A stretch of 64,000 nucleotides of DNA, taken from positions 272 through 64,271 of the forward strand of contig JAQCIU010000017.1 in NCBI GenBank assembly GCA_027593235.1. Direction: 5' to 3'. Source of the DNA: Chloroflexota bacterium (lineage in GTDB: Bacteria > Chloroflexota > Dehalococcoidia > UBA2979). Shown here one piece after another: positions 1,972 through 54,078 of the stretch (position 1 is the stretch's first letter; every line of letters starts with the position of its first letter). The notes beneath the pieces were generated by a model that was given only the letters and a program-made list of their open reading frames with translations, had not been told where the DNA came from and did no database searches. The position numbers were made by a program, and so were the translations under genes.

Positions 1972-2095
1972 CGGTTCATCAAGAGCGGCAGAGGGCTCGG
2001 CCCTGCGAAGCCGCGGCAACCGGTGATCCCTTCGCCAGGGGTCAACACGGTGCCAAGTCCGGCCTGCTGGCAAGTCCAGCGGGGACGATGAACGG
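1972..2095 (+). promoter_or_regulatory. SAM-I (S-box) riboswitch aptamer
   Basis: The P1 stem pairs GTTCATC (1974-1980) with GATGAAC (2087-2093). The conserved core reads AAGAG-CGGCA-GAGGG-CTC-GGCCC ... GGCAACC ... GGTGCCAAGTCC. It lies about 190 nt upstream of the ThrC-like gene. Confidence 0.8.
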
Positions 2096-2285: not shown

Positions 2286-3542
2286 ATGTCCTATAGCCAC
2301 GCGCTCCGCTGTCGCGAATGTGGTCGGGAGTACCCGCTCGACCCGATCTTCTCCTGCGAGTTCTGCTTCGGCCCCCTCGAGGTCGCCTACGACTACGAGG
2401 CCATCGCCGCCAACACCACCCGCGCAAGCATCGAGGCTGGCCCCACCACCCTCTGGCGCTACGCCAACCTCCTGCCCTGCGACGTCGAATACAAGGTCGA
2501 TATCGGCACCGGCTTCACCCCGCTCATCAAGGCGGATCGCCTCGCCAAGGCCGTCGGCCTCGACACCCTCTGGGTGAAGAACGACACCGTGAACCCCACC
2601 TGGTCGTTCAAGGATCGCGTCGTCAGCGTAGCCATCGCCCGCGCCCGCGAATTCGGGTTCGACGCCATGGCCTGCGCCAGCACCGGCAACCTCGCCAACT
2701 CCGTTGCCGCCCACTCCGCCGCCGCCGGCATGGACTGCTACGTCTTCATCCCGGACGACCTGGAGCAGGGCAAGGTCGTCGGCAGCGGCATCTACAACCC
2801 GACGCTAGTCATGATCGAAGGCTCCTACGACGACGTGAACCGCCTCTGCACGGAGGTCGCCTCCGTCCGCCCCTGGGCCTTCGTCAACATCAACGTGCGC
2901 CCGTACTACGCCGAAGGATCGCGCACCCTCGGCTTCGAAATCGCCGAGCAGCTCGGCTGGCGCACGCCCGATCACGTTATCGCCCCCATGGCCTCCGGAT
3001 CCCTCTTCACCAAGATCTGGAAGGGCTTCCAGGAGTTCCACAAGGTCGGCCTGATCGACGCGCCAACCACCCGCATGTCTGGTGCGCAGGCCGCCGGCTG
3101 CTCGCCGATCACCACCGCCTACGAGGCCGGCACGCTCAACTTCGTGCCTCAGAAGCCCAACACCATCGCCCGCTCGCTCGCGATCGGAAACCCGGCGGAC
3201 GGCTACTACGCCCTCAAGGTCATCGAGGACACCAACGGCGGCGCCGCCATGGTCACCGACGACGAAATCGTCGATGGCATCAAGCTCCTCGCCGAAACCG
3301 AAGGCATCTTCGCCGAGACCGCCGGTGGCGTAACCGTCGCCTGCCTCAAGAAGATGGTGGAGTCCGGCCACATCCGCCGCGACGAAGAGTCAGTCGCCGT
3401 CATCACCGGCGGTGGACTCAAAACCATCGAGGCCGTCCGCGACCACGTCTCCGAGCCGCTTCGCATCCCCGCCCGCGTCGCCGATTTCGACGCCGCGTTG
3501 GCTGCCCGCGAAGCTGCCCCGGTTCCCGTGGGCGCGAGCTAA
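2286..3542 (+). CDS. threonine-synthase-family PLP enzyme, candidate homocysteine-forming MetM-like enzyme
   Basis: It has an N-terminal Cys4 ribbon (CRECG...CEFC) and a SFKDR PLP-lysine motif. The ATG at 2286 follows a GAGGA Shine-Dalgarno. Context is a SAM riboswitch upstream and a sulfur carrier downstream. A separate housekeeping thrC sits at 51563. Confidence 0.7.
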   Translation: MSYSHALRCRECGREYPLDPIFSCEFCFGPLEVAYDYEAIAANTTRASIEAGPTTLWRYANLLPCDVEYKVDIGTGFTPLIKADRLAKAVGLDTLWVKNDTVNPTWSFKDRVVSVAIARAREFGFDAMACASTGNLANSVAAHSAAAGMDCYVFIPDDLEQGKVVGSGIYNPTLVMIEGSYDDVNRLCTEVASVRPWAFVNINVRPYYAEGSRTLGFEIAEQLGWRTPDHVIAPMASGSLFTKIWKGFQEFHKVGLIDAPTTRMSGAQAAGCSPITTAYEAGTLNFVPQKPNTIARSLAIGNPADGYYALKVIEDTNGGAAMVTDDEIVDGIKLLAETEGIFAETAGGVTVACLKKMVESGHIRRDEESVAVITGGGLKTIEAVRDHVSEPLRIPARVADFDAALAAREAAPVPVGAS

Positions 3543-3585: not shown

Positions 3586-3831
3586 ATGGCTTCCCGACAC
3601 ATCCGCTTCACCTTCTCCGGTGACCAGGTGAAGCGACCACTCATCTACGAATTGGGTCACCAGTTCAAAGTCGTCACCAACATCCGCATGGCCGACGTCG
3701 GCCAGACCACCGGCTGGGTCGTCCTCGAAATCGAGGGCGACGACGACGAAATCAAAAAGAGCCTCGCCTGGGCCCGCGAACAGGGCGCACGCGTCGACGA
3801 AGCAACCCTCGGCGACGTCGTCGAAGGCTAG
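3586..3831 (+). CDS. stand-alone NIL-domain protein
   Basis: 81-aa protein. HIRFTFSGDQVKRPLIYELGHQFKVVTNIRMADV...GWVVLEIEGDDDEI matches the NIL domain pattern found at the C-terminus of MetN. Confidence 0.7.
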   Translation: MASRHIRFTFSGDQVKRPLIYELGHQFKVVTNIRMADVGQTTGWVVLEIEGDDDEIKKSLAWAREQGARVDEATLGDVVEG

Positions 3832-3918: not shown

Positions 3919-4197
3919 ATGGCCGTCACCGTCAAAATCCCCACCCCGCTCCGCAACCTCACCGGCGATGCCTCCGAGTACAGCGCCGACAGCGCCTCCC
4001 TCACCGCCCTCGTCGAAGAGCTCGAAGGCGCCTACCCCGGCATGCGAGAACGCCTCGTTGACGACGCCGGCGAACTCCGCCGCTTCGTCAACCTCTTCGT
4101 CAACGGCGAAGACATCCGCTTCCTCCAGGGCCTCGCCACCACCCTCAACCCCGGCGACGAAGTCTCCATCGTCCCCGCCGTAGCCGGCGGCGCCTAG
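3919..4197 (+). CDS. MoaD/ThiS-family sulfur carrier (carrier 1), C-terminus AGG-A
   Basis: 92-aa beta-grasp protein with RFVNLFVNGEDIRF and a terminal VAGGA. It is a paralog of the ORFs at 7281 and 8651. Confidence 0.8.
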   Translation: MAVTVKIPTPLRNLTGDASEYSADSASLTALVEELEGAYPGMRERLVDDAGELRRFVNLFVNGEDIRFLQGLATTLNPGDEVSIVPAVAGGA

Positions 4198-4252
4198 CGC
4201 CAACCGGCAGCGCCACACCTGCCGCGGGACCGGTCGCAGAGCGAGTCCCCTC

Positions 4253-4420
4253 CGCCCGGAGGCCAAGCCCGGGAACGCCCGAGGACAATCAACCCGGGTT
4301 TGCAAGGGGGTCGTAGGGGGACAGCCCCCGCGCGTAGCGCGATCAAATCCTCGATTCGCCCGGAGGCCAAGCGAGAAGCGCCCGAGGACAATCAACCCGG
4401 GTGGGTCGTAGGGGGACAGC
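4253..4420. repeat. imperfect tandem duplication (about 104-bp period) with GC-rich hairpins
   Basis: CGCCCGGAGGCCAAGC-N7/8-CGCCCGAGGACAATCAACCCGGGT...GGGTCGTAGGGGGACAGC occurs at 4253-4324 and again at 4357-4420. A hairpin AGGGGGACA-GCTA-TGTCCCCCT follows. Confidence 0.6.
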
Positions 4421-4632
4421 TATGTCCCCCTGCTGGGGGGTCGCAGGGGGGCGAAGCCACCCTGATCCCAACCCGACCCCCGAGGCACGCACCCACCCGA
4501 GGATCGCCGCTCACGCAACAGCCGCGGAGGCCCGGCCATCCCTATCCCACCTAAGAAGCGCGCGAGGACAGCGCCCCGGAGCGAGCGCCGCGACCGGCGG
4601 CGGAACAGACAGCGCGCTGCGCCAGGTCGCCG

Positions 4633-5554
4633 CTACCCCGCGGCCGCAGCCACCCCAACCACCGGCCCCGCCGCCCGACTCTCCAACAACAACTCCACGA
4701 TCTCAGTCATGTGATCCAACATCAGCAAGTGCCCGGCATCCTCGATGTACCGCGTCTCCGCGTGAGGCAACGCCCCCGCCACCCACTCCGCCAGCCACAT
4801 CGGCACCACATCGTCTGCCGTCCCATGCCACAACTGCAGCGGCGCCTGCACCGAGGTCACATCGAACCCCCAGCGCCGCGCTAGCAACCGCAACTCCTGC
4901 GCCAGCGTCCCCCCGCCCCCCGCCCCGCGCCACCGAGGCCAGTAGGTCCTGTCGCATCACTGCATTGATCGCTGGCTGCCGGATCAGCGTCCGATCCGCC
5001 TCCGGCGCCGCATTCGATCGTCGCTGCAGGAACATCCCCACATCCGACTCGATCGCCCGCGCGACCTGCCGCGTTCGGAACCGCACTACCGGCGCCAGCC
5101 GTGCCATCGCGAACCGCTCCAGCCGCTGTCGTCGTGTCAGCCGCGCGTCCGCCTCGGGCGTGCGGAGCGGCCCCATCGCGCTCACATTCGCCACCGAGGC
5201 CACTCGATCCGGCATCGCCGCCGCCGTCGCCAGCGCGAACGGCCCCCCGCCCGAATACCCGAACACCGAGAACCGATCGATCCCCAGCACGTCTAGCGCG
5301 TCCGCCACATCCGTCGGCCAGTCGTGAATCTGCCGGCCCGGCAGCCGATCCGACAGCCCGTACCCCGGCCGATCGAACGCGATCACCCGCGCCCCGTGCG
5401 ATTGACCCACCAGCCCCGCCGAATGCGAGGAGTGTCGTGACCCGGGAATCCCGTGGAAAAACAGCACCGGCCAGCCGTCGTCAGCCCCGTACGAGGCGTA
5501 CCCGAGGCGGCGGCCGTCGGGCAGTGTGAGCTGGTTGTCTGTGTTGATCGGCAT
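4633..5554 (-). pseudogene. alpha/beta-fold hydrolase interrupted by a 1-nt frameshift
   Basis: The N-terminal part (from MPINTDNQ at 5554; HGIPGS oxyanion motif, GYSGGG nucleophile elbow) is in a different frame from the C-terminal part (GTADDVVP, AGHLLMLDH). The frames switch inside the C6-G-C6-G-C4 tract at 4909-4926. Removing one base restores ...ARGGGGGTLAQELRLLARRWGF... Confidence 0.55.
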
Positions 5555-5675
5555 AGATCGAGCCGTCCTGGAGCGGACCGGAGCCCCTCGATCGTACCAG
5601 CCCCTAGATCGGCGCCCGGGGCCCATTCCCGACCCCGTGCGCACCTCCCGAGGATGCACACCCGCTTACTGATCG

Positions 5676-5716
5676 TGCTACAATCTTGACCTAGCTAGTC
5701 GTGAATTATCCACGAC
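5676..5716 (+). promoter_or_regulatory. candidate extended -10 promoter and inverted-repeat operator upstream of the Rrf2 gene
   Basis: TG-C-TACAAT lies at 5676-5684. An inverted repeat GTCGTG-AATTATC-CACGAC lies at 5698-5716, 29 nt before the ATG at 5745. Confidence 0.35.
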
Positions 5717-5744
5717 CCGCAACACGACCAACCTCGGACGGCAC

Positions 5745-6188
5745 ATGCTCCTCAGTACCAAAGGCGACTACGGCGTTCGCGCCCTCATCGACCTCGCCAA
5801 ACACACCGGCGAGGGCCCGGTGCAGCGCGCCGAAATCGCCCGCCGTCGCAAGATTCCCGAGTCCTACCTCGATCACCTCCTCGCCCAGCTCCGCCGCGAC
5901 GGCTACCTGCGCAGCACGCGCGGCCCCGGCGGCGGACACGAACTTGCCAAGGCCCCAGACGACATCACCCTCCTCGAGGTCCTCGAAAGCCTCGAGGGCT
6001 CCCTCGTCCCCATGGAGTGCGTCAACGAAGCCCCCGGATCCGATGCCGGTGCGCTCTGTGGCCAGCAATGGGTCTGGCAGGACATCTACACCCAGATGCG
6101 CGAACGCCTCGCCCAAACCACGATCGCCGACCTCGTCGATCACGAACGCGACCACGAACGGCAAGCCGCCGCCATGTACAGCATCTAG
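5745..6188 (+). CDS. Rrf2-family transcriptional regulator (CymR/IscR-like)
   Basis: MLLSTKGDYGVRALIDLA...IPESYLDHLLAQLRRDGYLRSTRGPGGG is the canonical Rrf2 winged-helix N-terminus. It lies immediately upstream of cysK. Confidence 0.85.
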   Translation: MLLSTKGDYGVRALIDLAKHTGEGPVQRAEIARRRKIPESYLDHLLAQLRRDGYLRSTRGPGGGHELAKAPDDITLLEVLESLEGSLVPMECVNEAPGSDAGALCGQQWVWQDIYTQMRERLAQTTIADLVDHERDHERQAAAMYSI

Positions 6189-6205
6189 CCGCGGGCACAG
6201 GACGC

Positions 6206-7162
6206 ATGACCACCGACGCCCAGACACCTCCCCAGGCGCCCACCCACACCACGCCGCTGATCGCCGGCAGCGTGCTCGATCTCGTCGGCAACACCCCGCT
6301 CGTTCGCCTCAACCGCGTCGTCCCGCCAGACGCCGCCGAGGTGCTCGGCAAGTTCGAGGTCTTCAACCCCGCCGGTTCGGTCAAGGACCGGATCGCCCGC
6401 TCGATGGTCGAATCCGCTCAGGGCGCCGGCCTCATCAAGCCCGGTGACACCCTCGTCGAGCCCACCTCCGGCAACACCGGTATCGGCCTCGCCATGGTCT
6501 GCGCCGCGCTCGGCTACCACCTCGTCCTCACCATGCCGGACGACATGTCCGTCGAACGCCGCCGCCTCCTCCAGCGCTTCGGCGCGGACCTCGTCCTCAC
6601 CCCCGCCATCGATGGCATGACCGGCGCCATCCACGCCGCGCAACAGCTCGTCGATCAGCACGGCTACTTCATGCCGCAACAATTCCAGAACCCCGCCAAC
6701 CCGGAGATCCACCGCCAGACCACCGGCCCCGAAATCCTCGAAGCCACCGGCGGGAAGCTCGACGCCTTCGTCGCCGGCGTTGGCACCGGCGGCACCATCA
6801 CCGGCGTCGGTGAAACGCTCCGCGCCGCCGGGCTCGATGCACGCGTCGTCGCCGTCGAACCCGCCCGTGCCCCTGTCCTCCAGGGCGGCCGCGCCGGCCT
6901 CCACGGCATCCAGGGCATCGGCGCCTCGTTCGTCCCCGGCGTCCTCAATACCGATATCTACACCCAGGTCATCAGCGTCTCCGACGAAGACGCCTACGAC
7001 ATGACCGGCCGCCTCGCTCGCGAGGAAGGCCTGCTCGTCGGCGTCTCTTCCGGCGCCAACGTCGCGGCCGCGATCCAGATCGCGAAGGAACTCGGCCCCA
7101 GCAAACGCGTCGTCACCATGCTCTGCGACACCGGCGAGCGTTACCTGAGTCTCGATCTCTAA
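6206..7162 (+). CDS. cysK: cysteine synthase A (O-acetylserine sulfhydrylase)
   Basis: LVGNTPLVRLN, NPAGSVKDRIA (PLP lysine), EPTSGNTGIGLA and GVGTGGTITG motifs. The ATG at 6206 lies inside the longer ORF 6017..7162. Confidence 0.85.
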   Translation: MTTDAQTPPQAPTHTTPLIAGSVLDLVGNTPLVRLNRVVPPDAAEVLGKFEVFNPAGSVKDRIARSMVESAQGAGLIKPGDTLVEPTSGNTGIGLAMVCAALGYHLVLTMPDDMSVERRRLLQRFGADLVLTPAIDGMTGAIHAAQQLVDQHGYFMPQQFQNPANPEIHRQTTGPEILEATGGKLDAFVAGVGTGGTITGVGETLRAAGLDARVVAVEPARAPVLQGGRAGLHGIQGIGASFVPGVLNTDIYTQVISVSDEDAYDMTGRLAREEGLLVGVSSGANVAAAIQIAKELGPSKRVVTMLCDTGERYLSLDL

Positions 7163-7280
7163 TGCCGAGCCAGATCGCCGCGCGGCGCAGTCAATCCTTC
7201 ACCCGGAGCGGGTCCGCCCCGCCCCGGTGGCGTGAGCTGCCGCACATCCCGCCGCCCGCGCAACAGCGGACACTCCGCGC

Positions 7281-7574
7281 GTGACAGTGAAGGTCTATAT
7301 CCCCTCCACCTTCCGCCGCCTCACCGACAACCGCGAACACGTAGAAGTCGAAGGGAACTGCGTCGCTGATGTACTCGAATCGCTCGAGGCCGCCTACCCC
7401 GGCTTCGGCGAACTGGTCTTCGATCAGGATCGAAACGTCCCGCGGCACATCAACATCTTCGTGAACAACCAGGAAATTCATGACCTGAACGGCACCGCCA
7501 CCCCGGTGGTGGACGGTGATCAGGTCGCAGTCATTCCAGCGCTAGCAGGGGGTGTCCACCATGGTCAGCAGTAA
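7281..7574 (+). CDS. MoaD/ThiS-family sulfur carrier (carrier 2) with a 6-residue extension after GG
   Basis: 97-aa paralog of carriers 1 and 3. It ends ...IPALAGG-VHHGQQ, and the tail codons overlap the start of the E1 gene. Confidence 0.75.
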   Translation: MTVKVYIPSTFRRLTDNREHVEVEGNCVADVLESLEAAYPGFGELVFDQDRNVPRHINIFVNNQEIHDLNGTATPVVDGDQVAVIPALAGGVHHGQQ

Positions 7575-8448
7575 CGGAACCAGCGGCTCGGCAAGCGGCC
7601 CCGCAAGCGGCGCGCTCACCCCGGAAGAGGTCATGCGTTACTCGCGGCACATCATCATGCCGCAGGTCGGTTCCGAGGGTCAGCGCAAGCTCCGCAACGC
7701 CAAAGTGCTCGTCGTCGGCGCCGGCGGCCTCGGTGGCCCCGTCGCCCTCTACCTCGCCCTCGCCGGCGTTGGCACCATCGGCATCACCGAGTTCGATGTC
7801 GTTGATCTGTCCAACCTGCAGCGCCAGATCCTTCACCAGACACCGGACATCGACAAGCCGAAGCTCCAGTCGGCCAAGGAGTCGCTGTACGCCTACAACC
7901 CGCACGTCCAGGTCGTTGAGCACCCGATGCCCATCACCTCCGACAACGCGATGGACATCATCCCCAATTACGACATCGTCGTGAACGGCGCCGACAACTT
8001 CGCCACGCGCTACCTCGTCAACGACGCCTGCTACCTCGCGGGCAAGACCCTTGTCGACGGCGCCATCCTCCTCTTCGATGGCCAGCTCACCGTCTACAAG
8101 CCCGGCTTCGGCTGCTACCGCTGCCTCTACCCGGATCCCCCGCCCCCGGGCCTCGTGCCCTCGTGCGCGGAGGCCGGCGTCCTCGGCGCCATCACCGGCA
8201 TCGTCGGTTCCATGCAGGCCACCGAGGTCTTCAAGCAGATCCTCAACATCGGCGAGCCGATGGTGAACCGCCTGCTGCTGATCGACGCCCTCTCGATGCA
8301 GTTCCGCGAGATGAAGCTGCGGCGCGACCCCAGTTGCCCGCTCTGCGGCGACAACCCGACCGTCACCGAGCTGATCGACTACGACGCCTTCTGCGGCTCA
8401 CCGCCGCTGGAGATGCCTGCACCCGCGACGGCAGGAGCATCGCATTAG
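7561..8448 (+). CDS. ThiF/MoeB/HesA-family E1-like adenylyltransferase without a rhodanese domain
   Basis: RYSRHIIMPQVG, the nucleotide loop VVGAGGLGG, and Zn motifs CYRC and CPLC. The ATG at 7561 follows AGGGGG; a GTG at 7552 is an alternative start. The protein stops about 45 aa after the second CxxC, so there is no rhodanese module. Confidence 0.85.
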   Translation: MVSSNGTSGSASGPASGALTPEEVMRYSRHIIMPQVGSEGQRKLRNAKVLVVGAGGLGGPVALYLALAGVGTIGITEFDVVDLSNLQRQILHQTPDIDKPKLQSAKESLYAYNPHVQVVEHPMPITSDNAMDIIPNYDIVVNGADNFATRYLVNDACYLAGKTLVDGAILLFDGQLTVYKPGFGCYRCLYPDPPPPGLVPSCAEAGVLGAITGIVGSMQATEVFKQILNIGEPMVNRLLLIDALSMQFREMKLRRDPSCPLCGDNPTVTELIDYDAFCGSPPLEMPAPATAGASH

Positions 8449-8650
8449 GAACCGCGCGACGGCAGGAGCATCGAACGGATAGCAGCGGTTGGTACGGCCC
8501 ACTAGAAATCGCGTAGGCGCAGCCTACGAAGCTGCCGAGCGGCAACAACGGTCCGACCGCCCTGAGCGATCGGACCACTGACGAACGAACTATTGCGCTC
8601 GCGGCGCCTGCACCTCAGGCAGGACGCTCGCGAGGGGGAAGGACACGAAA

Positions 8651-8929
8651 ATGGCGGTAACTGTCCAGGTCACCTCGGTCATCCAGCGAGTTGTCGACGG
8701 CCAGCGTGAATTCGCTGCCGAAGGCGGCACCGTCGCCGAGCTCATCGAAAACATCGACGGCAAATACCCCGGCTTCCGAGGCCAAATCGCCGACGACAAG
8801 GGCGAACTGCACCGCTTCGTCAACATCTACCTCAACGACGAAGACATCCGCTTCCTCTCCGGCAAGGACACCGCCGTCTCCGAAGGCGACACCGTCTCCT
8901 TCTTGCCGGCGCTGGCCGGCGGCGCCTAA
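8651..8929 (+). CDS. cysO: CysO-like MoaD/ThiS-family sulfur carrier (carrier 3), C-terminus AGG-A
   Basis: 92 aa. HRFVNIYLNDEDIRFLSG...LPALAGGA closely resembles mycobacterial CysO. It sits directly upstream of a CysM-type synthase. Confidence 0.8.
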   Translation: MAVTVQVTSVIQRVVDGQREFAAEGGTVAELIENIDGKYPGFRGQIADDKGELHRFVNIYLNDEDIRFLSGKDTAVSEGDTVSFLPALAGGA

Positions 8930-9043
8930 GTCCGGCACGCCGGAGGCGAACAGGCCCGCCCAGCCGGGGCGGACAGATCTACGCCGCGGGTGGTCGCGGC
9001 ACGAGCGACTCAGACAGCGAACGGGACACGCGGAGGCGGCACG

Positions 9044-9979
9044 ATGCGCTACGACAGCATCCTTGATCTCGTCGGCAACACCCCCCTCGTCGAAATCTCC
9101 ACGCTCTCCCCGAACCCCGACGTCCAGATCTTCGCCAAGCTCGAAGGCCAGAACCCCACCGGATCCGTGAAGGACCGCATCGCCAAATTCATGATCGAAG
9201 CCGCCGAGGCCGATCACTCCCTCGCCCCCGGCCAGACCATCCTCGAACCCACCTCCGGCAACACCGGCATCGCGCTCGCCCTGATCGCCTCGCTGCGTGG
9301 CTACCCGCTCAAGGTCGTCATGCCTGACGCCGTCAGCCAGGAACGCATCGAACTGCTCGAAGCCTTCGGCGCCGAAATCATCTACTCGCCCGGCGACCTC
9401 GGCACCAACGGATCCGTTGCCATGGCCCGCCAGGTCGCCGCCGATCACCCCGACTGGTTCACCCCCTTCCAGTACGAGAACGAAAACAACCCCCGCGCCC
9501 ACTACGAAACCACCGGCCCCGAAATCATCGCCGACCTCCCGGACCTCGACGCCTTCGTCTCCGGCCTCGGCACCGGCGGCACCCTCACCGGCACCGGCCG
9601 CCGCCTCAAGGAATACAACCCCGCCATCCGCGTCATCGCTGCCGCTCCGCACCCCGGCGACCTCGTCCAGGGCCTCCGCAGCCTCGAGGAGGGCTACATC
9701 CCGCCCGTCTTCGACGAATCCGTCCTCGACGGCCGCATCGTCGTCGATTCCGAAACCTCCTTCCGCATGACCAAGGAACTGGCGCAGCGCGTCGGCATCT
9801 TCGCCGGCATCTCCAGCGGCGCCGCCGTCCGCGCCGCCCAGCGCACCGCCGAACGCATGGACCGAGGCAAAGTCGTCGTCCTCCTCGCCGACGGCGGCTG
9901 GAAGTACCTCAGCACCGGCCTCTGGAACCGCGACTACGCCGACATCGTCGAAGACGTCGGCGAAAAACTCTGGTGGTAG
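9044..9979 (+). CDS. cysM: CysM-type cysteine synthase (carrier-thiocarboxylate dependent, O-phosphoserine type)
   Basis: LVGNTPLVEI, NPTGSVKDRIA, EPTSGNTGIALA, GLGTGGTLTG and a C-terminal KYLSTGLW tail. The ATG at 9044 lies inside ORF 8990..9979. Confidence 0.8.
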   Translation: MRYDSILDLVGNTPLVEISTLSPNPDVQIFAKLEGQNPTGSVKDRIAKFMIEAAEADHSLAPGQTILEPTSGNTGIALALIASLRGYPLKVVMPDAVSQERIELLEAFGAEIIYSPGDLGTNGSVAMARQVAADHPDWFTPFQYENENNPRAHYETTGPEIIADLPDLDAFVSGLGTGGTLTGTGRRLKEYNPAIRVIAAAPHPGDLVQGLRSLEEGYIPPVFDESVLDGRIVVDSETSFRMTKELAQRVGIFAGISSGAAVRAAQRTAERMDRGKVVVLLADGGWKYLSTGLWNRDYADIVEDVGEKLWW

Positions 9980-12010: not shown

Positions 12011-12589
12011 CTAGCTCGTCATCCCGCCCAGTCCGACCAGCGCACGCCCCAACTCAACCTCGCCCATGTGCCGCAACCCGTGCTGATAGACGAAGCACTC
12101 CAGCACCTCCAGCTTCCGCACCGGCGTGTCGACCCCACCCAGCACGATCGCGCAGTAGCTGTTCTTCATGCTCTCGCCCAGGCCCGCGCTCACGACCTCC
12201 AGTAGTCGTTCCTCCGTCAGATCCACCAGCGCCGTCTCCGTGCGAGCCAGCACCTGAGACTGGTACTCACGCCACGCGTCGATGTCGCCGAACCGGATCT
12301 GCTCCATCTCCTGGACCGTCTCTTCGCGCCCAATCGAATTCACCGTCACGCCGGTTTTTTCGGCCCAGCCACCCACCGCCCACAACGGCGGCGCCCCCAG
12401 GAACTGCATGCTGATCGAACCGTCCTGGATCTTGATGAAGTGAGCAAAGCTGAACGCCATCGGGATCACCCCGTTCCGCTCGTGGTGATTGATCTGGTCC
12501 AGCGTCAGGTCGCTCGCCGCCATCTCCCACAGGCGGTTCATCGCGCGGATCCGGTTGCGCAGGGATGTCACGAACACGTCGTTACTCAT
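12011..12589 (-). CDS. DinB/YfiT-like four-helix-bundle protein (putative thiol-dependent transferase family)
   Basis: 192 aa counted from the ATG at 12589. The length and the N-terminal RNRIRAMNRLWEMAASDLTLDQINH pattern resemble the DinB_2/MDMPI superfamily. The assignment is weak. Confidence 0.45.
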   Translation of the reverse strand: MSNDVFVTSLRNRIRAMNRLWEMAASDLTLDQINHHERNGVIPMAFSFAHFIKIQDGSISMQFLGAPPLWAVGGWAEKTGVTVNSIGREETVQEMEQIRFGDIDAWREYQSQVLARTETALVDLTEERLLEVVSAGLGESMKNSYCAIVLGGVDTPVRKLEVLECFVYQHGLRHMGEVELGRALVGLGGMTS

Positions 12590-12692
12590 GGGCGGCAGTC
12601 TAGTCGGCGTGCAAGCCGCCCTGCGGCCCCGGCGCCATCCTGCACACCACCCCGGTATGCTCACCACTGGAAGCTGCGACGAGGAGGCGAAC

Positions 12693-13535
12693 ATGGCCGT
12701 CGGCGACACCCAGATCGTAGAACTCGCGACCGGCGTCTACGCCCGACTCCACGAAGGCCTCACCAACGGCGGCATCATCGTCGGTGACGAGGGCGTCCTC
12801 CTCATCGACTCTCTCCGCGTCCCTTCCTTCGCCCGGGATCTCATCGCCGACGTCAAGAAACTCACCGACAAGCCCATCCGCTACGTCGTCGACACCCACT
12901 CCCACTGGGACCACTCCTGGGGCAACGAAGAGTTCCCGGACTCCACCATCATTGGCCACGCCAACTGCCGCGCCGAAATGGTCGACCTCGAAGCCCGCGC
13001 CTGGTGGATGAACCGCGTCGTCTCCGCCGGCGACCCCTGGTCCAAGGAAGCCGAGACCGTCCGCGTCACCCCACCCGACCTCACCTTCGACGAAAAGATG
13101 TCCCTGTACTTCGCCGGCCGTCGCATCGACCTCCTCTACCTCGGGCGCGCTCACACCAGCGGCGACATCTTCGTTCACCTCCCCGACGACCGACTCCTCT
13201 TCACCGGCGACGTCGCCCAGGACGGCGGAGTCCCTTTCATGCTCGACGGTTACCCCAAAGACTGGGTCGCCACTGACATCCGTCTCGCCCAGATCGACTG
13301 CGAGCGCTTCATGTCCGGCCACGGCCCGATCGGTGCCCCCAGCGCCCTCCTCGAAGCTCGCGACTTCATCGCCGCCATTGCTGACGGCACCACCACAGCC
13401 ATCGCCTCCGGCCAGGACCGCGACACCACCGCCACCGAAGTCACCGCCTCCATGACCGACCGCTTCGGCCACTGGCGCGGCTTCGAACGGGTCCACGACA
13501 GCGTCGCCTACACCTACGACCAGCTCACCGCCTAA
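12693..13535 (+). CDS. MBL-fold metallo-hydrolase
   Basis: THSHWDH (HxHxDH) motif, followed by GHANC and HTSGD metal-ligand positions. ATG at 12693. Confidence 0.75.
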   Translation: MAVGDTQIVELATGVYARLHEGLTNGGIIVGDEGVLLIDSLRVPSFARDLIADVKKLTDKPIRYVVDTHSHWDHSWGNEEFPDSTIIGHANCRAEMVDLEARAWWMNRVVSAGDPWSKEAETVRVTPPDLTFDEKMSLYFAGRRIDLLYLGRAHTSGDIFVHLPDDRLLFTGDVAQDGGVPFMLDGYPKDWVATDIRLAQIDCERFMSGHGPIGAPSALLEARDFIAAIADGTTTAIASGQDRDTTATEVTASMTDRFGHWRGFERVHDSVAYTYDQLTA

Positions 13536-13817: not shown

Positions 13818-14258
13818 ATGCCCCGCATCCCCCGCCCCCTCATCGACGAAATGATCGCCCACGCTCGCCAGGACCTCCCCAACGAAGCCTGTGGCCAGCT
13901 CGACGGCCGCGACGGCGAAGCCGTCACCGCCCACCCCGTCAAGAACGTCGAGGCCAGTCCCTACCGCTATTCCATGGACCCGCTCTCGATGCTCAAACTC
14001 GAAAACGCCCGCGAGGCCAGTGGCGAGACCCTCTTCGCCATCTACCACTCCCACGTCGCCTCCGAGGCCTACCCATCCCCCACTGACATTCGCCAGGCCT
14101 TCTTCCCCCCCGGCGAAGTGGACCGCGACCCCATGTACCCCGACACCTACTACATCCTCATCTCCCTCAAGTACGACCCGCCCCACGTTCGCGCCTTCCA
14201 CATCCGCACCGGCGGCACCATCGAAGAAGAGCAAATCGACATCGAGGACCCCGCATGA
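13818..14258 (+). CDS. JAMM/MPN+ metalloprotease (Mec+/CysO-hydrolase-like)
   Basis: NEACG, then HSHVASEAYPSPTDI, which is the HxH-x7-S-xxD JAMM motif. 146 aa counted from the ATG at 13818. Confidence 0.8.
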   Translation: MPRIPRPLIDEMIAHARQDLPNEACGQLDGRDGEAVTAHPVKNVEASPYRYSMDPLSMLKLENAREASGETLFAIYHSHVASEAYPSPTDIRQAFFPPGEVDRDPMYPDTYYILISLKYDPPHVRAFHIRTGGTIEEEQIDIEDPA

Positions 14259-39470: not shown

Positions 39471-40199
39471 CTAGTCGACCGAACCGACGGGCTTCGGCCG
39501 CACGCCCTCTTGCCAGTGCGTGCCGTCGGTGCCGTGTTCCTTCTTCCAGACCGGCACCGTCTCCTTGACGCGATCGACCGTCCGCGAGGCGGCGTCGAAG
39601 GCGTCCTGCCGGTGCGCGGCGGAGACGGCGACTACCAGCGAGGTGTCGCCGATCTCCAGCGTGCCGATGCGGTGGTGGATCGCGATCGCGTGCACCTCGC
39701 GATCGGCGAAGTCGCGCATCACCTCGCCGGCGACGGCGCGGAGCTGCTTCTCGGCCATCGGTACGTAGGCCTCGTACTCCAGGCGCAGCACTGCACGGCC
39801 CTCGTGGTGATCGCGCACGACGCCCTCGAAGACCACGGCCGCGCCGCTGGCGCGCGTCGTCACGAGGTCGCGCAGCGCGCGCACCTCGAGCGGTGTGTCG
39901 GTGACGAGGAATGGCGGGAGTTCGCCGCCTTCGCCGTGAGGCGGGTCGTCGGACCCGCCGGCGATCGGCGGGATCAGCGCGACGGTGTCGCCGTCCTTCA
40001 GCGGCTCGCTGTCGTCGAGGATGTAGTCCTCGTTGACGGCGATCGCGACGCCGGTCAGGTAGGGGCGGAGCTTGTCGTGACGTTCACCGAGCCGCTCGCG
40101 AAGGGCGGCAACGGTGATCGACTCAGCCTCGAACTCCTCGGTGAGGTCGCCGCCCATGACGTCTCGCAGCCCGGCGAAGAGGTGAACGGTGATGCGCAA
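39471..40199 (-). CDS. fused MoaD-MoaE molybdopterin synthase (MoaX-like)
   Basis: The N-terminal 82 aa form a MoaD beta-grasp ending IPPIAGG. A linker follows, then a MoaE domain (VFEGVVRDHHEGR, IHHRIG.LEIGD, VWKKE). Confidence 0.8.
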   Translation of the reverse strand: MRITVHLFAGLRDVMGGDLTEEFEAESITVAALRERLGERHDKLRPYLTGVAIAVNEDYILDDSEPLKDGDTVALIPPIAGGSDDPPHGEGGELPPFLVTDTPLEVRALRDLVTTRASGAAVVFEGVVRDHHEGRAVLRLEYEAYVPMAEKQLRAVAGEVMRDFADREVHAIAIHHRIGTLEIGDTSLVVAVSAAHRQDAFDAASRTVDRVKETVPVWKKEHGTDGTHWQEGVRPKPVGSVD

Positions 40200-49263: not shown

Positions 49264-50565
49264 GTGACCGAGCCGGTCGGGGTCTCAATGCTGGGCGCGG
49301 GGAACGTGGGTGGCGGCGTGATCGCCGCCGTGACCGCGTCTGCCGCCCGCTACGAACGCACGATCGGTCGCCCGCTGGAACTGCGCCGCGCCCTCGTGCG
49401 CGACGTCGGCCGGGCGCGCCCGGGCCTCGATCGGTCGCAGCTCACCACGGATCTGGCGGACATTCTCGCGGACGCGGGGACGCAGATCGTGATCGAGCTG
49501 ATGGGCGGCGAGGATCCCGCTCACGACTACATCGCACAGGTGCTCGCCTCCGGTCGTCACGTCGTGACGGCGAACAAAGAGGTGATGGCGAAGCACGGCG
49601 CGGAGCTGCTGGCGCTCGCTGCGAAGCACGACGTACGGCTGCTCTACGAAGCCTCGGTTGGCGGCGGCATCCCGATCATCAGCCCGCTCTCCCGCGATCT
49701 GCTGGCGAACGAGGTCACGGCCGTGACCGCCATCATCAACGGCACCACCAACTTCATGCTGACCGCGATGGCGACCGAGGGCGCCGACTACGCCGATGTG
49801 CTGGCGGAGGCGCAGCGCCTGGGCTACGCCGAGCCCGATCCGACGGCCGACGTCGAGGGCTTCGACGCGGCGTACAAGCTCGCGATCCTCTGTGGCCTCG
49901 CCTTCGGGCTGGAGATCGCGCCCGACGCGATCGATCGCCAGGGCATCTCGTCGCTGACCGCGCGTGACTTCGAGTACGCGGCGGAGCTGGGTTACACGAT
50001 CAAGCTGCTCGCCGGCGCGCGCCTCAACGACGGCGCGCTGATCGCGAGCGTCCGGCCGACGCTGATCGATCGCGACGAACCGCTGGCCAAGGTCGACGGG
50101 GTGCTGAACGCGGTGCAGATCGAGGGCGACCTCGTGGGCCGCGTGCTCTTCGAGGGCCCCGGCGCCGGTGCGGCGCCGACCGCGAGTGCGGTCTTGGCCG
50201 ACGTGCTGGAGCTGGTCCGCGACATCGTCGCCGGGCGCGCTCCGCTCCCGGTCGCGCCGCTTGCGCCGGGTCGCGTGGTCCCGCCCGCCTCGCACCGTTC
50301 GCGCTACTACGTGCGGCTGACGGTGCCGGATCAGGCTGGCGTACTGGCGCAGATCGCCGGCGCGCTGGGCGACCGCGACGTGAGCATCGCTTCCGTGCTC
50401 CAGTTCGAAGATGACGAGGACGCCGGTACCGCGGAGCTGGTCCTCACCACCCACCTCGCCGCGGGCGGCGACGTGCTCGAGGCGTTGCACCAGATCGAGA
50501 GCGCGGGCGTCGTGCAGCGGGTCGGCAACGTGCTGCCGATCGCCGGCCAGGGTGGCGCGCGGTGA
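49264..50565 (+). CDS. hom: homoserine dehydrogenase
   Basis: LGAGNVGGGV NAD loop, TANK, GGIPII, GI.NGTTNF and a C-terminal ACT domain. Confidence 0.9.
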   Translation: MTEPVGVSMLGAGNVGGGVIAAVTASAARYERTIGRPLELRRALVRDVGRARPGLDRSQLTTDLADILADAGTQIVIELMGGEDPAHDYIAQVLASGRHVVTANKEVMAKHGAELLALAAKHDVRLLYEASVGGGIPIISPLSRDLLANEVTAVTAIINGTTNFMLTAMATEGADYADVLAEAQRLGYAEPDPTADVEGFDAAYKLAILCGLAFGLEIAPDAIDRQGISSLTARDFEYAAELGYTIKLLAGARLNDGALIASVRPTLIDRDEPLAKVDGVLNAVQIEGDLVGRVLFEGPGAGAAPTASAVLADVLELVRDIVAGRAPLPVAPLAPGRVVPPASHRSRYYVRLTVPDQAGVLAQIAGALGDRDVSIASVLQFEDDEDAGTAELVLTTHLAAGGDVLEALHQIESAGVVQRVGNVLPIAGQGGAR

Positions 50566-51566
50566 CCGCCGATCGCCCGATCCCGATCCCGCTTGGCGTC
50601 GCGCGCATCGACGAGCTGGCACGCGAACTGAGCCACTCACGGGCGATGCTCGAGGTGCTGCGTACCGAGGTGACCGCCCTCGAGGGCCAACTCCAGACCG
50701 TCGAGGGCCGCACGCTCCGCCACGAGGCCGGACAGGATCTTGCGCGCGAGGTAAAGAGCGAACTCGCGGGCCTCGACGAGCGGCTCGCCTCCGAGGCGAC
50801 GCTGCGCCGCGATCTGGGTGCGCTCGTCGAGCGGGCGGCGACCCGCGACCGTGAGTTCGAGTCGGAGCTGCGGCGCGCGCTGGAGGTGATCGCCTCACGC
50901 CTCGATCTGTTCGAGGGCCACCAGACGGCGGGAGAGGAACGTCAGCGAGCGCTTCGCGCGGTCGCGGCGGAACGCAGCGGCGTCGATCAACTGCACGACG
51001 AACGGCTGGTCACCCTCGAGCGGCAGGTGGCGGCACAGCGTGACGCGGCGATCGAGAACGCGCAGGAGCTGGCGACCGTGAGCGCGCGGCTGCCAGATCT
51101 GGATCGGCGGCTCGACGAGCTGACCAGCGAAGCGGCTGCGGCGCGCGTGGCGCGACAGCGGATGGAGGCGGAGATCGCCTCGCTCCGCTCGATTCGTGAT
51201 CGCGAAGCCGAGGTGCTCGATCTCCTCGAACAGCAGCGGGCGACGCGCACCCGTCACGAAAGCCGGCTCTCGGAGATCGAGGAACTGGTCGCGGCGAGCC
51301 AGATCGCGCTGGGCGAGGCCGCCGAGGAACGCGCGCGGCTCGTCCGCGAGCAAGCGGGCGCGGCGGAGCGGCTCGGCCGGCTCGGCGAACGGCTGGAGGG
51401 GCTGCGCATCTCGATCGTCGAGCACATGCGCCGTCAGGTGCGCGCCGAAGAGCAGTCCGGTCGGAGGATCGTCGAAGAGACCGAGCGGGAGTTGCGCGTC
51501 TCGCGCACGCTGCTGACGAGAATGTCCGAACAGACAGAGGACGCCGTGATGGAGCAACCGCTGTGA
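50562..51566 (+). CDS. 334-aa coiled-coil protein of unknown function
   Basis: Almost entirely heptad-like and rich in E, R, L and A, with no TM segment. Its GTG overlaps the hom stop (GTGA), and its own stop overlaps the thrC GTG (GTGA). Confidence 0.55.
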
Positions 51567-52651
51567 GCGCGCCGTCGGTTGCCGCGCACCCGTTGAGCGG
51601 TGACAGCCGCTTCATCCTCCAGCGCTACCGCGACTTGCTGCCGATTACCGATGAGACGCCGATGGTCACGCTGGGCGAGGGCGGCACGCCGCTGATCCGC
51701 TCGCGTGTCCTGGAGCGAGAGCTGGGCCTCGAGGCGCTCTACTTCAAGGCGGAGTTCACCAACCCGACCGGTTCGTTTAAGGATCGCGGGATGGTGCTGG
51801 CGGTCGCGAAAGCGGCCGAGGCCGGCGCGCAGGCGGTGATTTGCGCCTCCACGGGCAACACCTCGGCCTCGGCGGCTGCGTACGCGGTGCGGCACGGGCT
51901 GGAGGCGATCGTCGTCGTGCCCTCGGGCAACATCGCGATGGGGAAGCTGGCCCAGGCGGTCGCCCACGGCGCGACGATCGTTGGCATCGACGGGTCGTTC
52001 GACGACGCGCTGCGGATCGTGCGCGAGCTATCGGAGCGCCACCCGGTCGCGCTCGTGAACTCGGTGAACCCGCACCGTATCGAAGGTCAGAAGACGGGCG
52101 CATTCGAGATCGCGGACGAACTGGAACGCGCGCCCGATCTGCTCTGCATCCCGGTCGGCAACGCGGGCAACATCACCGCCTACTGGCGCGGATTCACGGA
52201 GTACTACCACCTGGAGAAGATCGCGACGCGACCGCGAATGCGGGGGTTCCAGGCGGCCGGCGCGGCGCCGCTGGTCTCCGGATCGCCCGTGGCGAAGCCG
52301 GAGACGATCGCGACCGCGATCCGGATCGGCAACCCGGCCTCGTGGGATGGCGCGATCAGCGCCCGCGACGAGTCTGGCGGCACGATCACTGCGGTGACCG
52401 ACGACGAGATCCTGAACGCGTACCGCCGGCTGGCGGCGGACGAAGGGATCTTCTGCGAGCCGGCCTCCGCCGCCTCGGTCGCCGGCCTGCTTCAGCGTCG
52501 TGCCGCGGGTGAGGATTTCGGCGGCCAGACGGCCGTCTGCATCATCACCGGCGCGGGCCTCAAGGATCCGGATACGGCACTGCAGATCGACGCGCGCCGC
52601 GTCGAATCAGCCGCCGAGACCGCCGCCGTGGAGCACGCGCTGGGTTGGTGA
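51563..52651 (+). CDS. thrC: threonine synthase (housekeeping type)
   Basis: [17 protein letters not shown] (PLP lysine), [14 protein letters not shown] and GNAGN. It sits downstream of hom. Confidence 0.9.
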
Positions 52652-52776
52652 CAGCCCCGACCCTCCTCGATTGGTCCGCGTGATACGCTGAAGGTTACAG
52701 GGCACATGCATTTCTACTGTGCCCTCGGCGACTGATCGTCGTGCATGCCCGTCCGCTGAGAATGAGGCCCCCGCGC

Positions 52777-54075
52777 ATGACCCCGGTTCCGCGCGTCACC
52801 CCCTCCGAGGCTTCGCGCATCGCCGTGCTCTCAATGCACACCTCGCCGCTGGCGCCGCTGGGCGGCGCCGCGACCGGCGGGATGAACGTCTACGTCCACG
52901 AGGTGTCGGAGCGGCTTGCCGAGCGCGGTCGGACGATCGACGTGTTTACGCGCCGCGACGATCCCGCAGCCCCAATGATCACCGAGTTCGCGCCCGGTGC
53001 GCGGCTCATTCAGATCGAGGCCGGACCGGCGGCGCCACTGCCGAAGACCGACCTCATTCACCACACCGCGGCGTTCGCCGCTGGGATCGAGGCGTTCCGG
53101 GCCAGTGAGGGCACCCACTACGACCTGATTCACTCGCACTACTGGCTGTCCGGCGTCGCCGGCGAGCGGCTGACGGCCGAATGGGGCGTCCCACACGTCG
53201 CTATGTTCCACACGCTGGGCGAGGTGAAGTTGCGCGCACGCGCGTCCGAGCACGAGCCGCCCGAGCGCCTCGAGGCTGAGCGCCGGCTCGTGCAGTCGCT
53301 GGACCGCGTGATCGCCGCCACGAGCTACGAGGAGCGCCTGCTGCGCCAGGTCTACGGCGTTCCGGCGGACCGCATCGACGTGATCCCGCTGGGCGTCGAT
53401 CCGGAACGGTTCCACCCCGGTTCGCGCGAAGCGGCGCGACGGCAGCTTGGGATCGCCGCCGAAGACCGTATCGTGCTCGCCGTCGGCAGAATTGAGCCGC
53501 TCAAAGGCCTCGACATCCTGATCCGCGCGATCGCGCAGATCACGGATCAGCGGGCATTGCGGCTGCTGATCATCGGTGGCGACGAGCAGGCACGCCCGGA
53601 GTTCGATCGCCTCAGCGCAATCGCCGAAGAGGTTGGCGTTCGCCACCTGGTCTCCTTCGTCGGCGCGATCGCGCACCACGAATTGCCTGAGTACTACCGC
53701 GCGGCGGACGTGGTGGTGATGCCCTCGTTCTCCGAGTCGTTCGGGCTGGTTGCGGTCGAGGCGATGGCCTCGGGCGTTCCGGTGGTCGTCTCGCGCGTCG
53801 GTGGGCTGGCCTCGACGGTGGCGGACGGGCGGACCGGGTACCTGGTGCCGTGGCGCTGCCCGGAGCCATTCGCGGAAAAGATCGAGCTGCTGCTGCGAAA
53901 CGAACCACTACGCAAGGCCCTCGGCGCCGCCGGGGTGGAGCGGATGCGCGACTTCTCATGGCATTCGGTCGCTGAACGGCTGCTGCTGCTCTACGACGAA
54001 TTGGCGCGCGACGGCGTGGCGCGGACCGCGGAAACCGCACAAGTCGCGGACGCCGCCAGTGCGGCGGGGGGATAG
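52777..54075 (+). CDS. GT4 glycosyltransferase, MshA/BshA-like
   Basis: RIAVLSMHTSPLAPLGGAATGGMNVYV is nearly identical in pattern to the MshA N-terminus. The C-terminal half carries the E-x7-E region PSFSESFGLVAVEAMASG. The ORF is open from 52741, so the start is uncertain. Confidence 0.75.
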   Translation: MTPVPRVTPSEASRIAVLSMHTSPLAPLGGAATGGMNVYVHEVSERLAERGRTIDVFTRRDDPAAPMITEFAPGARLIQIEAGPAAPLPKTDLIHHTAAFAAGIEAFRASEGTHYDLIHSHYWLSGVAGERLTAEWGVPHVAMFHTLGEVKLRARASEHEPPERLEAERRLVQSLDRVIAATSYEERLLRQVYGVPADRIDVIPLGVDPERFHPGSREAARRQLGIAAEDRIVLAVGRIEPLKGLDILIRAIAQITDQRALRLLIIGGDEQARPEFDRLSAIAEEVGVRHLVSFVGAIAHHELPEYYRAADVVVMPSFSESFGLVAVEAMASGVPVVVSRVGGLASTVADGRTGYLVPWRCPEPFAEKIELLLRNEPLRKALGAAGVERMRDFSWHSVAERLLLLYDELARDGVARTAETAQVADAASAAGG

Positions 54076-54078
54076 CCG

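Follow-up and report, generated by a model that had tools for sequence, protein, structure and literature searches.

What is known of protein-thiocarboxylate routes to cysteine and methionine comes from few organisms, namely Mycobacterium tuberculosis, Wolinella and Streptomyces. In Wolinella an ordinary sulfhydrylase, MetY, uses the protein thiocarboxylate of HcyS, and the MetM/MetO pathway of Streptomyces albulus was reportedly described by Hasebe et al. in 2024. In the MetM/MetO pathway homocysteine is made from O-phosphohomoserine and MetO-thiocarboxylate with Mec and MoeZ as helpers (10.1101/2024.10.14.618325), and metM of S. albulus has been reported with an S-adenosylmethionine (SAM) riboswitch (PMC12172450). 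That one activating enzyme (E1) can serve several carriers is already established (PMC3227635, PMC5925218, PMC11323500): MoeZR serves both CysO and MoaD (PMC3227635), a unique MoeZ occurs with several carriers (PMC5925218), and one E1 acts on carriers of unrelated pathways in Thermus, archaea and actinomycetes (PMC6225789, PMC11323500, PMC5925218). Proteolytic maturation of such carriers is also known, as the JAMM protease CxnF removes ten residues after the GG of CxnE (PMC5925218) and MoaD-MoaE fusions are cleaved in M. tuberculosis (MoaX) and in Deinococcus (DRJAMM) (PMC4326299, PMC8832034). Finally, Iyer et al. catalogued in 2006 operons in which a solo carrier accompanies a ThiF with an N-terminal ubiquitin-like domain, and one case, from Pelobacter, sits with a cysteine synthase and an O-acetylhomoserine sulfhydrylase (PMC1779556). 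Here we describe a sulfur-amino-acid gene cluster with three paralogous carriers and one E1 in a 64,000-nucleotide (nt) stretch of contig JAQCIU010000017.1 (the window) from a high-GC Dehalococcoidia-class Chloroflexota bacterium. One of the carriers, carrier 2, is predicted to be a detached domain of the E1.

Using the E1 as query we collected 80 related loci, nearly all from Dehalococcoidia-class Chloroflexota genomes assembled from metagenomes (the closest has 94% identity in the E1; the cultured Tepidiforma flava has 74%), and we extended the carrier 2 reading frame in each of the 63 loci that have this carrier. In 49 of the 63 carrier 2 precedes the E1, in frame, within a single open reading frame (ORF) of 363-393 residues, which comprises a beta-grasp domain ending in VIPA[LI]AGG, a linker of 3-25 residues and the E1 core from about RYSRH. 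The VIPA[LI]AGG end is invariant across loci. In the other 14, including the window, carrier 2 is split from the E1 by a stop codon after a short variable tail. The window itself lacks the single-polypeptide architecture found in those 49 loci and has two ORFs in different frames: the GG codons of carrier 2 (7281..7574, + strand) end at 7553, the E1 frame (7552..8448, + strand) is shifted by +1, and the two ORFs overlap by 23 nt. On the strength of these reading frames we interpret carrier 2 of the window as the detached N-terminal ubiquitin-like domain of the E1. The initial annotation had regarded it as a free orphan and as the best candidate for a non-canonical role such as protein modification, a view that is not supported by the presence of the same domain at the E1 N-terminus in 49 of the 63 relatives.

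In a neighbor-joining tree of the E1 core the fused forms are basal, and at least four independent fissions are required, along with two clean losses; the window E1 groups with two split forms (L002 and L014) and one fused form (L007). The fused form is also found in the finished chromosome of T. flava (L039; NZ_CP115149.1), as an ORF of 368 residues, and thus is not an artefact of metagenome assembly. In the two loci with clean losses (L008 and L031) cysK abuts the E1 gene and carriers 1 and 3 are kept. Thirteen more distant loci have no CysO-like carrier within 10 kilobases (kb); eight of them keep Rrf2-E1-cysM, with a cysM of the M. tuberculosis type, and the remaining five yielded the E1 alone. 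This carrier-less sister group is made up of lower-GC Dehalococcoidia (L050-L052, L060-L062, L064, L065, L073, L074, and L078-L080), and in L074 the E1 has a low-complexity N-terminal extension where the carrier domain would sit.

Two trivial explanations of the split were considered. An assembly error was rejected, being contradicted by the 14 split loci in four tree positions, and by the nearest relatives, L002 and L014, which are split with different tails. Programmed +1 frameshifting that would restore the fusion was judged unlikely, as the split loci share no common overlap geometry; a TAG at 7543 in the E1 frame means that only a 26-nt window would permit such a shift. The ratio of nonsynonymous to synonymous substitution rates for carrier 2 (0.06-0.22) is comparable to those of carrier 1 (0.12-0.45) and carrier 3 and indicates purifying selection, whether the carrier is fused or split.

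These data bear on the possibility that the N-terminal domain is no carrier at all and instead stays uncleaved and regulates the E1, as a docking domain or pseudo-substrate. According to Iyer et al. (2006), ThiF-fused ubiquitin-like domains beside a solo ThiS differ in role from ThiS (PMC1779556), and the linker can be as short as 3 residues before the N-terminal helix of the E1. Such a role is difficult to square with the free-standing carrier 2 with its own stop codon having arisen at least four times and still being under purifying selection, with a ...PA[LI]AGG end that is invariant exactly as in carriers 1 and 3, and with two lineages that run the E1 without the carrier 2 domain. We consider a docking domain very unlikely. 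Instead, we read carrier 2 as a genuine E1-activated carrier made in precursor style, which the JAMM protease would set free and its own E1 would charge.

The arrangement resembles the Ubl-ThiF fusions (Ubl, ubiquitin-like domain) in that a beta-grasp domain precedes the E1 adenylation domain and a stand-alone carrier lies in the operon: carrier 3 is immediately downstream of the E1, both in the window and in related loci. It differs from them in that the domain belongs to the CysO branch, has a strict GG, alternates between fused and split forms within one clade (being split in the window), and sits in a context of cysteine rather than thiamin biosynthesis. The car2-E1 architecture (car2, carrier 2) is therefore a variant of one noted in 2006 that, as far as we found, has never been tested experimentally, and what is new in it is a CysO-branch carrier that, across a clade, is now joined to its E1 and now separate from it. 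The cleaved MoaD-MoaE fusions (PMC4326299, PMC8832034) offer a parallel, since there too translation yields a GG carrier joined to the front of a partner enzyme, to be freed by a cut after the GG; the fusion partner of carrier 2, however, is the activating E1 and not an acceptor enzyme.

Fusions of this kind extend beyond the locus. A profile of the carrier 2 family was run against 1.84 billion representative proteins and gave 8385 matches, among the best 150 of which we read the fusions. About a quarter of these 150 are longer than a lone carrier domain, and those longer proteins that we inspected keep the ...PA[IL]AGG junction. The fusion partners include an E1, an E1 plus rhodanese (P0197), a rhodanese alone (P0241), a sulfite-reductase-like domain (P0202), a CysM/CBS-like enzyme (P0164), a NIL domain joined through the GG to MetO-like carriers (P0175 and P0214), and a second carrier placed head-to-tail with GG between the units, as in a polyubiquitin precursor (P0138). 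In one protein (P0179) the carrier comes last, at the C-terminus, after an E1 and a TusA-like domain. Retention of the GG at all of these junctions is meaningful only if they are cut. By word-index search, relatives of carrier 2 itself were reached only within Chloroflexota, and the weakest of these matches (P0044-P0046) are frameshifted copies of carrier 2. Repeated carrier C-termini were seen in two loci, with the carrier 2 tail SAIPALAGG present three times in L032 and the carrier 3 tail SQPALAGG twice in L055.

The presence of three carriers was the starting point of this work. As the initial annotation had proposed, the ORFs at 3919, 7281 and 8651 are paralogous (36-46% identity, each with a Pfam ThiS match) and have colinear 91-residue cores with GG at residues 90-91; all three align without gaps, with 23 invariant columns. 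The shared block that it described is real in all three, but the pattern given for it is slightly out of register for carrier 2: the aligned blocks read RFVNLFVNGEDIR, RHINIFVNNQEIH and RFVNIYLNDEDIR. In tblastn searches of the window, carriers 1 and 3 share 46% identity (E 3e-27), carriers 1 and 2 share 37% (E 4e-18) and carriers 2 and 3 share 36% (E 1e-18). Carrier 1 (3919..4197, +) is of the CysO/MetO type and ends ...AVAGG-A, carrier 2 is a divergent CysO-family beta-grasp protein that ends ...ALAGG-VHHGQQ, and carrier 3 (8651..8929, +) is of the CysO type, has CysM as its partner and ends ...ALAGG-A. Their matches to ThiS (PF02597) have E values of 1.6e-16, 9.1e-13 and 1.3e-15, respectively. 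The GG is invariant across 37 carrier 1, 62 carrier 2 and 64 carrier 3 orthologues, with the exception of two truncated copies.

The best solved-structure match of each carrier is either CysO of M. tuberculosis (3DWG_C) or an Amycolatopsis carrier (4N6E_B), with scores of 83 bits for carrier 1 (3DWG_C), 56 bits for carrier 2 (CysO), and 80 bits (4N6E_B) and 78 bits (3DWG_C) for carrier 3. Full-length phmmer alignments to these structures have E values of 1e-22, 4.6e-14 and 8e-22 for carriers 1, 2 and 3. By these comparisons all three are assigned to the CysO branch of the ThiS/MoaD beta-grasp family, in which carrier 2 stands furthest from the other two, as a separate conserved subfamily that has a signature of its own. 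The NCBIfam equivalog for SAMP1 (NF041918, cut-off 60) is passed marginally by carriers 1 (62.6) and 2 (61.1) and failed by carrier 3 (50.6), and these marginal matches reflect general CysO/MoaD similarity. Public records call such bacterial biosynthetic carriers "ubiquitin-like small modifier protein 1" via this model, which is probably an over-annotation.

The SAMP1 match touches on the protein-modifier role suggested by the initial annotation, in which carrier 2, similar to SAMP, TtuB or Urm1, would be conjugated to lysines with JAMM as the deconjugase. A GG terminus, an E1 with a loop cysteine (SCAEAG here) and a JAMM protease suffice for SAMPylation in archaea, carrier 2 does marginally pass the SAMP1 model, and sulfur-carrier ubiquitin-like proteins of Thermococcus also form conjugates (PMC11323500). 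However, carrier 1, a clear biosynthetic carrier, passes the same model, so that the match of carrier 2 is not specific. In addition, the E1 scores 316 against a UbaA cut-off of 450 and the JAMM protein 63 against a desampylase cut-off of 130, the genomic context is purely one of cysteine and methionine biosynthesis, and no conjugation-specific component, E2, E3 or target-like gene is present. A modifier role for carrier 2 is in our opinion highly improbable.

If carrier 2 donates sulfur, the question is to which enzyme. To compare candidate partners we used a mirror-tree analysis of evolutionary distance matrices over 54 loci, in which partial correlations were controlled for Rrf2 distances. 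The known pair carrier 3-CysM, which served as the positive control, gave 0.48, the strongest value for carrier 3. For carrier 2 the values were 0.43 with CysK, 0.34 with the E1 and 0.10 with CysM, and this ranking was unchanged under three controls (Rrf2, E1, and Rrf2 plus E1), the value with CysM being the lowest for carrier 2 throughout (0.04-0.23). The correlation with CysK exceeded that with CysM in 96% of half-samples. These results hint, without proving it, that the adjacent CysK is the most likely acceptor of carrier 2. CysK using carrier 2 is chemically reasonable given the MetY/HcyS precedent from Wolinella. That O-acetylhomoserine/MetY carrier pathway provides a model of an ordinary sulfhydrylase taking a protein thiocarboxylate, and there too an extra residue after the GG is removed by a JAMM-type protease; it differs in having a single carrier and in that MetY is not a ThrC-like enzyme.

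We consider it rather probable that the cluster as a whole joins two known protein-thiocarboxylate routes through one shared E1 and protease, with carrier 2 made in precursor style and CysK as its likeliest acceptor. The narrower proposal that carrier 2 is cut after its GG by JAMM, charged in place and used as a dedicated thiocarboxylate donor for CysK, such that CysK, CysM and MetM would all run on protein-bound sulfide, is offered only tentatively and may well be wrong. Several points weigh against these proposals. CysK is a textbook sulfide-using O-acetylserine sulfhydrylase A (OASS-A) and is still found where carrier 2 has been lost, in two genomes, so it needs no carrier. No carrier fused to CysK proper (OASS-A) was present among the database fusions, and in the sole fusion found of a carrier to a pyridoxal-phosphate (PLP) enzyme (P0164) the PLP domain is equally distant from CysK and CysM. 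The mirror-tree evidence for carrier 2 and CysK is weak: zero falls just inside the 95% interval of the half-sample difference, and the value may be inflated because the two genes are adjacent. The E1 has no rhodanese domain and the window has no sulfurtransferase. Cleavage of the fused precursor is deduced only from GG conservation and analogy, and all of the enzymology proposed for the locus comes from family membership.

Two other roles for carrier 2 were weighed against the same data. The first is that it is a back-up CysO, redundant with carrier 3 and feeding CysM, and that its fusion merely secures one-to-one expression with the E1. In its favor, the two losses of carrier 2 are clean, with all else kept; moreover, all three carriers are closest to CysO, and carrier 1-like or carrier 3-like E1 fusions occur elsewhere, so that a system may have a fused carrier as its sole CysO. 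Opposing this are the divergence of carrier 2 (36-37% identity) into a subfamily with its own signature, the fact that its distances correlate least with those of CysM, and its retention under purifying selection beside carrier 3 in more than 60 genomes. We think this role unlikely. The second, which we regard as less likely again, is that carrier 2 supplies sulfur for tRNA 2-thiolation, for thiamin or another cofactor, or for some other process whose genes lie elsewhere, and is linked to the E1 for activation only. The tightest physical link of carrier 2 is indeed to the E1 and not to an acceptor, and the single E1s that serve unrelated pathways in Thermus, archaea and actinomycetes, cited above, give this idea precedent. 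Yet the window has no acceptor such as TtuA/NcsA or ThiG, all 63 loci have carrier 2 only inside the Rrf2-cysK-...-cysM operon, and MoaD has a separate fused copy.

With regard to the activating enzyme, the E1 (start GTG 7552 or ATG 7561) is a MoeB/ThiF-type adenylyltransferase of 298 residues, with ThiF (PF00899, E 5e-81) over residues 30-263 and no other domain. It scores below the MoeB, MoeZ and UbaA equivalog cut-offs and above that of the PRK05690 subfamily. The MoeZ model (NF005902) gives 361 bits against a cut-off of 647 and covers only profile positions 13-276 of 392; the C-terminal rhodanese domain is missing, and the E1 does not have the MoeZ architecture. The loop cysteine (SCAEAG) is conserved. 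No rhodanese, cysteine desulfurase, TtuA or ThiG was found in the window in Pfam scans of ORFs selected by GC content at third codon positions (GC3), and no conserved cysteine that could replace the missing rhodanese domain was found among the carrier 2 orthologues.

The initial annotation had noted only one E1 and one JAMM protease in the neighborhood, and this holds for the full 64 kb, to which all of our counts of these two enzymes refer: neither tblastn with the local proteins nor Pfam scans of the GC3-selected ORFs revealed a second copy of either. Its idea that a single E1/JAMM pair might service several carriers is also plausible in light of the related loci, as the E1 stays beside CysM, carrier 1 and carrier 3 after the loss of carrier 2. 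The load on this pair may be greater than three carriers. At 39471..40199 (-) there is a MoaD-MoaE fusion (PF02597 over residues 4-81, MoaE PF02391 over residues 98-212, with matches to TIGR01682 moaD and the MoaE families) whose junction reads ...IAGG-SDDPP. It is a fourth GG carrier, one that probably relies on this E1/JAMM pair as well, and since it would need both cleavage and activation, the single pair would then serve four carriers.

In the cysteine module, CysM (9044..9979, +, in an ORF that opens at 8990) has its probable start at ATG 9044, which is preceded by GGAGG. Its best solved structures are those of M. tuberculosis CysM, the O-phosphoserine sulfhydrylase (3DKI, 3DWG_A and 3DWI, 295-298 bits), with the next family at 253 bits, and it keeps the equivalent of Arg220 within GLRSLEEGY. 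It is thus predicted to be of the O-phosphoserine-specific, CysO-binding type, and these features agree with the cysteine role that the initial annotation gave to carrier 3. The JAMM/MPN+ metalloprotease (13818..14258, +; PF14464 Prok-JAB, E 7e-19) is Mec+-like and has an intact E...HSHx7SxxD motif in its translation. Carrier 3, CysM and this JAMM protein together match the CysO/CysM/Mec+ cysteine route, as judged from their sequences. In the window the JAMM gene lies about 3.8 kb beyond cysM, with unrelated genes in between (a carbonic-anhydrase-like gene, two genes of the deazaflavin-dependent nitroreductase family, a DinB-like gene and a SoxH-like metallo-beta-lactamase gene), and in nine of the 80 related loci the JAMM gene is directly 3' of cysM.

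Comparison with the CysO-CysM-Mec+-MoeZ system of M. tuberculosis shows the same kinds of components, namely a CysO-like carrier 3 beside an M. tuberculosis-type CysM with the Arg220 equivalent, an intact JAMM in or near the operon, and one E1 that probably serves MoaD too (PMC3227635). The differences are that the Chloroflexota E1 lacks the C-terminal rhodanese of MoeZ, that the gene order is cysO-cysM-...-mec rather than mec-cysO-cysM, and that the operon here is headed by Rrf2 and cysK and has an extra E1-linked carrier. The Rrf2-family regulator (5745..6188, +; PF02082, E 1e-38) has CymR as its best specific family (NF047409, 104 bits, below the cut-off of 195) and is kept at the operon head in about 65 related loci. 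A promoter-like site lies upstream of it at 5655-5684, and repeat and promoter scans of the intergenic regions for a shared Rrf2 operator or repeat gave nothing else convincing. CysK (6206..7162, +) is a classical OASS-A (TIGR01139, 430 bits, cut-off 351), and its best solved structures are OASS-A enzymes such as 2EGU and M. tuberculosis CysK1 (2Q3B). The partners that the initial annotation had listed for the three carriers (a ThrC-like enzyme, CysK with the E1, and a CysM-type enzyme) were borne out by Pfam and NCBIfam matches, and the comparison of gene order that it had called for showed Rrf2-cysK-car2-E1-car3-cysM (car3, carrier 3) in about 55 of the 80 related loci. The spacer between the E1 gene and carrier 3 is 202 nt in the window, which is much longer than in relatives. 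An exact 19-nt direct repeat, CGCGACGGCAGGAGCATCG, at 8424-8442 and 8455-8473 (31 nt apart) straddles the E1 stop codon (8446-8448) and is a small tandem duplication.

Carrier 1 belongs to a second module, which lies upstream of the cysteine operon in about 35 of the 80 related loci as ThrC-like-NIL-carrier 1. In the window it is led by a SAM-I (S-box) riboswitch (1973..2094, +), a full-length match to Rfam RF00162 with 75.2 bits against a gathering score of 44.4; six of seven related loci tested also have this riboswitch upstream of the ThrC-like gene. The ThrC paralogue (2286..3542, +) is a MetM-like PLP enzyme (Pfam PALP, E 1e-70) with an N-terminal zinc ribbon (CxxC...CxxC) and a score of 302 bits for NF006050, the cut-off of which is 303; ATG 2286 is a likelier start than TTG 2250, where the ORF opens. 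It has 39% identity to the canonical ThrC of the same window (51563-52651; TIGR00260, 313 bits), which follows hom (49264-50565). Carrier 1 is 377 nt downstream of the ThrC-like gene in the same orientation. Between them is a stand-alone NIL-domain protein of 81 residues (3586..3831, +; PF09383, E 4.7e-16), which is kept at this position wherever the module occurs in the related loci. Because the NIL domain of MetN binds methionine and has a regulatory role, this protein may be a methionine-sensing subunit of the homocysteine pathway. The riboswitch, the NIL gene, the canonical thrC and the MoaD-MoaE fusion had escaped the initial annotation.

By its operon pattern the carrier 1 module matches the MetM/MetO homocysteine route of Streptomyces. 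As in S. albulus there is a ThrC-like enzyme apart from the housekeeping ThrC, an adjacent CysO-like carrier and an upstream SAM riboswitch, and Mec-type and MoeZ-type helpers are encoded elsewhere; the conserved stand-alone NIL gene between enzyme and carrier sets the Chloroflexota module apart. The homocysteine role assigned earlier to carrier 1 is consistent with the distinct ThrC paralogue and with the riboswitch, and we predict the paralogue to be a carrier-thiocarboxylate-dependent homocysteine synthase. The cysteine and homocysteine modules are accordingly of known kinds that differ from the type systems by the rhodanese-less E1 and the NIL gene. No source of O-phosphohomoserine for ThrC and the MetM-like enzyme was identified within the window: the approximately 1 kb between hom and thrC (50562-51566), a frequent place for thrB, has only ORFs without a Pfam or NCBIfam match and hence no ThrB. 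The ORF at 50562-51566 was considered as a non-canonical homoserine kinase, HomK, and rejected because it has no family match, HomK being phosphoglycerate-mutase-like. MetM-type enzymes are annotated as threonine synthase.

Taken together, these components suggest the following scheme. Ancestrally, carrier 2 would have been translated as the N-terminal domain of the E1, as a ubiquitin-style precursor, and a small insertion or deletion would have split the two in the window. JAMM would trim the residues after the GG, that is, Ala from carriers 1 and 3, VHHGQQ from carrier 2 and, in loci with the fused form, the entire E1. The rhodanese-less E1 would adenylate the exposed Gly, and sulfide or persulfide from an unlinked enzyme would then give the thiocarboxylate. 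CysM would join the carrier 3 thiocarboxylate to O-phosphoserine and JAMM would release cysteine; similarly, the MetM-like ThrC paralogue would join the carrier 1 thiocarboxylate to O-phosphohomoserine and JAMM would release homocysteine. With carrier 2 delivering to CysK, every one of the three PLP sulfhydrylases would have a dedicated carrier, and functional overlap of carrier 2 with carrier 3 would account for its having been lost twice. SAM is expected to switch the carrier 1 operon off via the riboswitch, with the NIL protein possibly sensing methionine, and the Rrf2 regulator would control the cysteine operon, possibly with CysK, as in the CymR-CysK pair of Bacillus.

If this scheme is correct in outline, both thiocarboxylate routes stand side by side in aerobic Chloroflexota, a large and hard-to-culture environmental group, with a single E1 and a single protease common to the two. 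Carrier 2 has frequently changed between the fused and the split form, which amounts to a natural experiment and predicts JAMM-dependent maturation of a Ubl-E1 precursor. A practical gain would be better pathway reconstruction for Chloroflexota genomes, in which the SAMP1 model misnames biosynthetic carriers and the threonine synthase label misnames MetM-type enzymes. Conceptually the gain is modest, unless carrier 2 turns out to be used by CysK; were that the case, this would be the first CysK with a protein thiocarboxylate and the first characterized Ubl-E1 precursor, and carrier 2 would be a bacterial counterpart of ubiquitin fusion precursors.

Two further features of the window were noted. 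Its strand composition breaks abruptly at about 25.3 kb (1-25300 versus 25300-64000). In every gene up to that point the third-codon-position GC skew of the + strand is -0.3 to -0.8 (two minus-strand genes have +0.3 in the coding sense), and beyond it the skew is about 0, though gene orientation is mostly the same on both sides. Among related loci there is skew in L039 (-0.22) and L002 (-0.13) and none in L001, L003 and L007. A replication switch would reverse the sign of the skew rather than cancel it, so a chimeric join or a recent rearrangement is possible. Lastly, an MshA-like glycosyltransferase gene (TIGR03449, 391 bits, below the cut-off of 462) is followed by a PIG-L-family deacetylase gene within 52741-54870, and the DinB-like gene between cysM and the JAMM gene (12011-12709, -) resembles mycothiol transferases. 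Together these genes hint at a mycothiol- or bacillithiol-like low-molecular-weight thiol in this bacterium.

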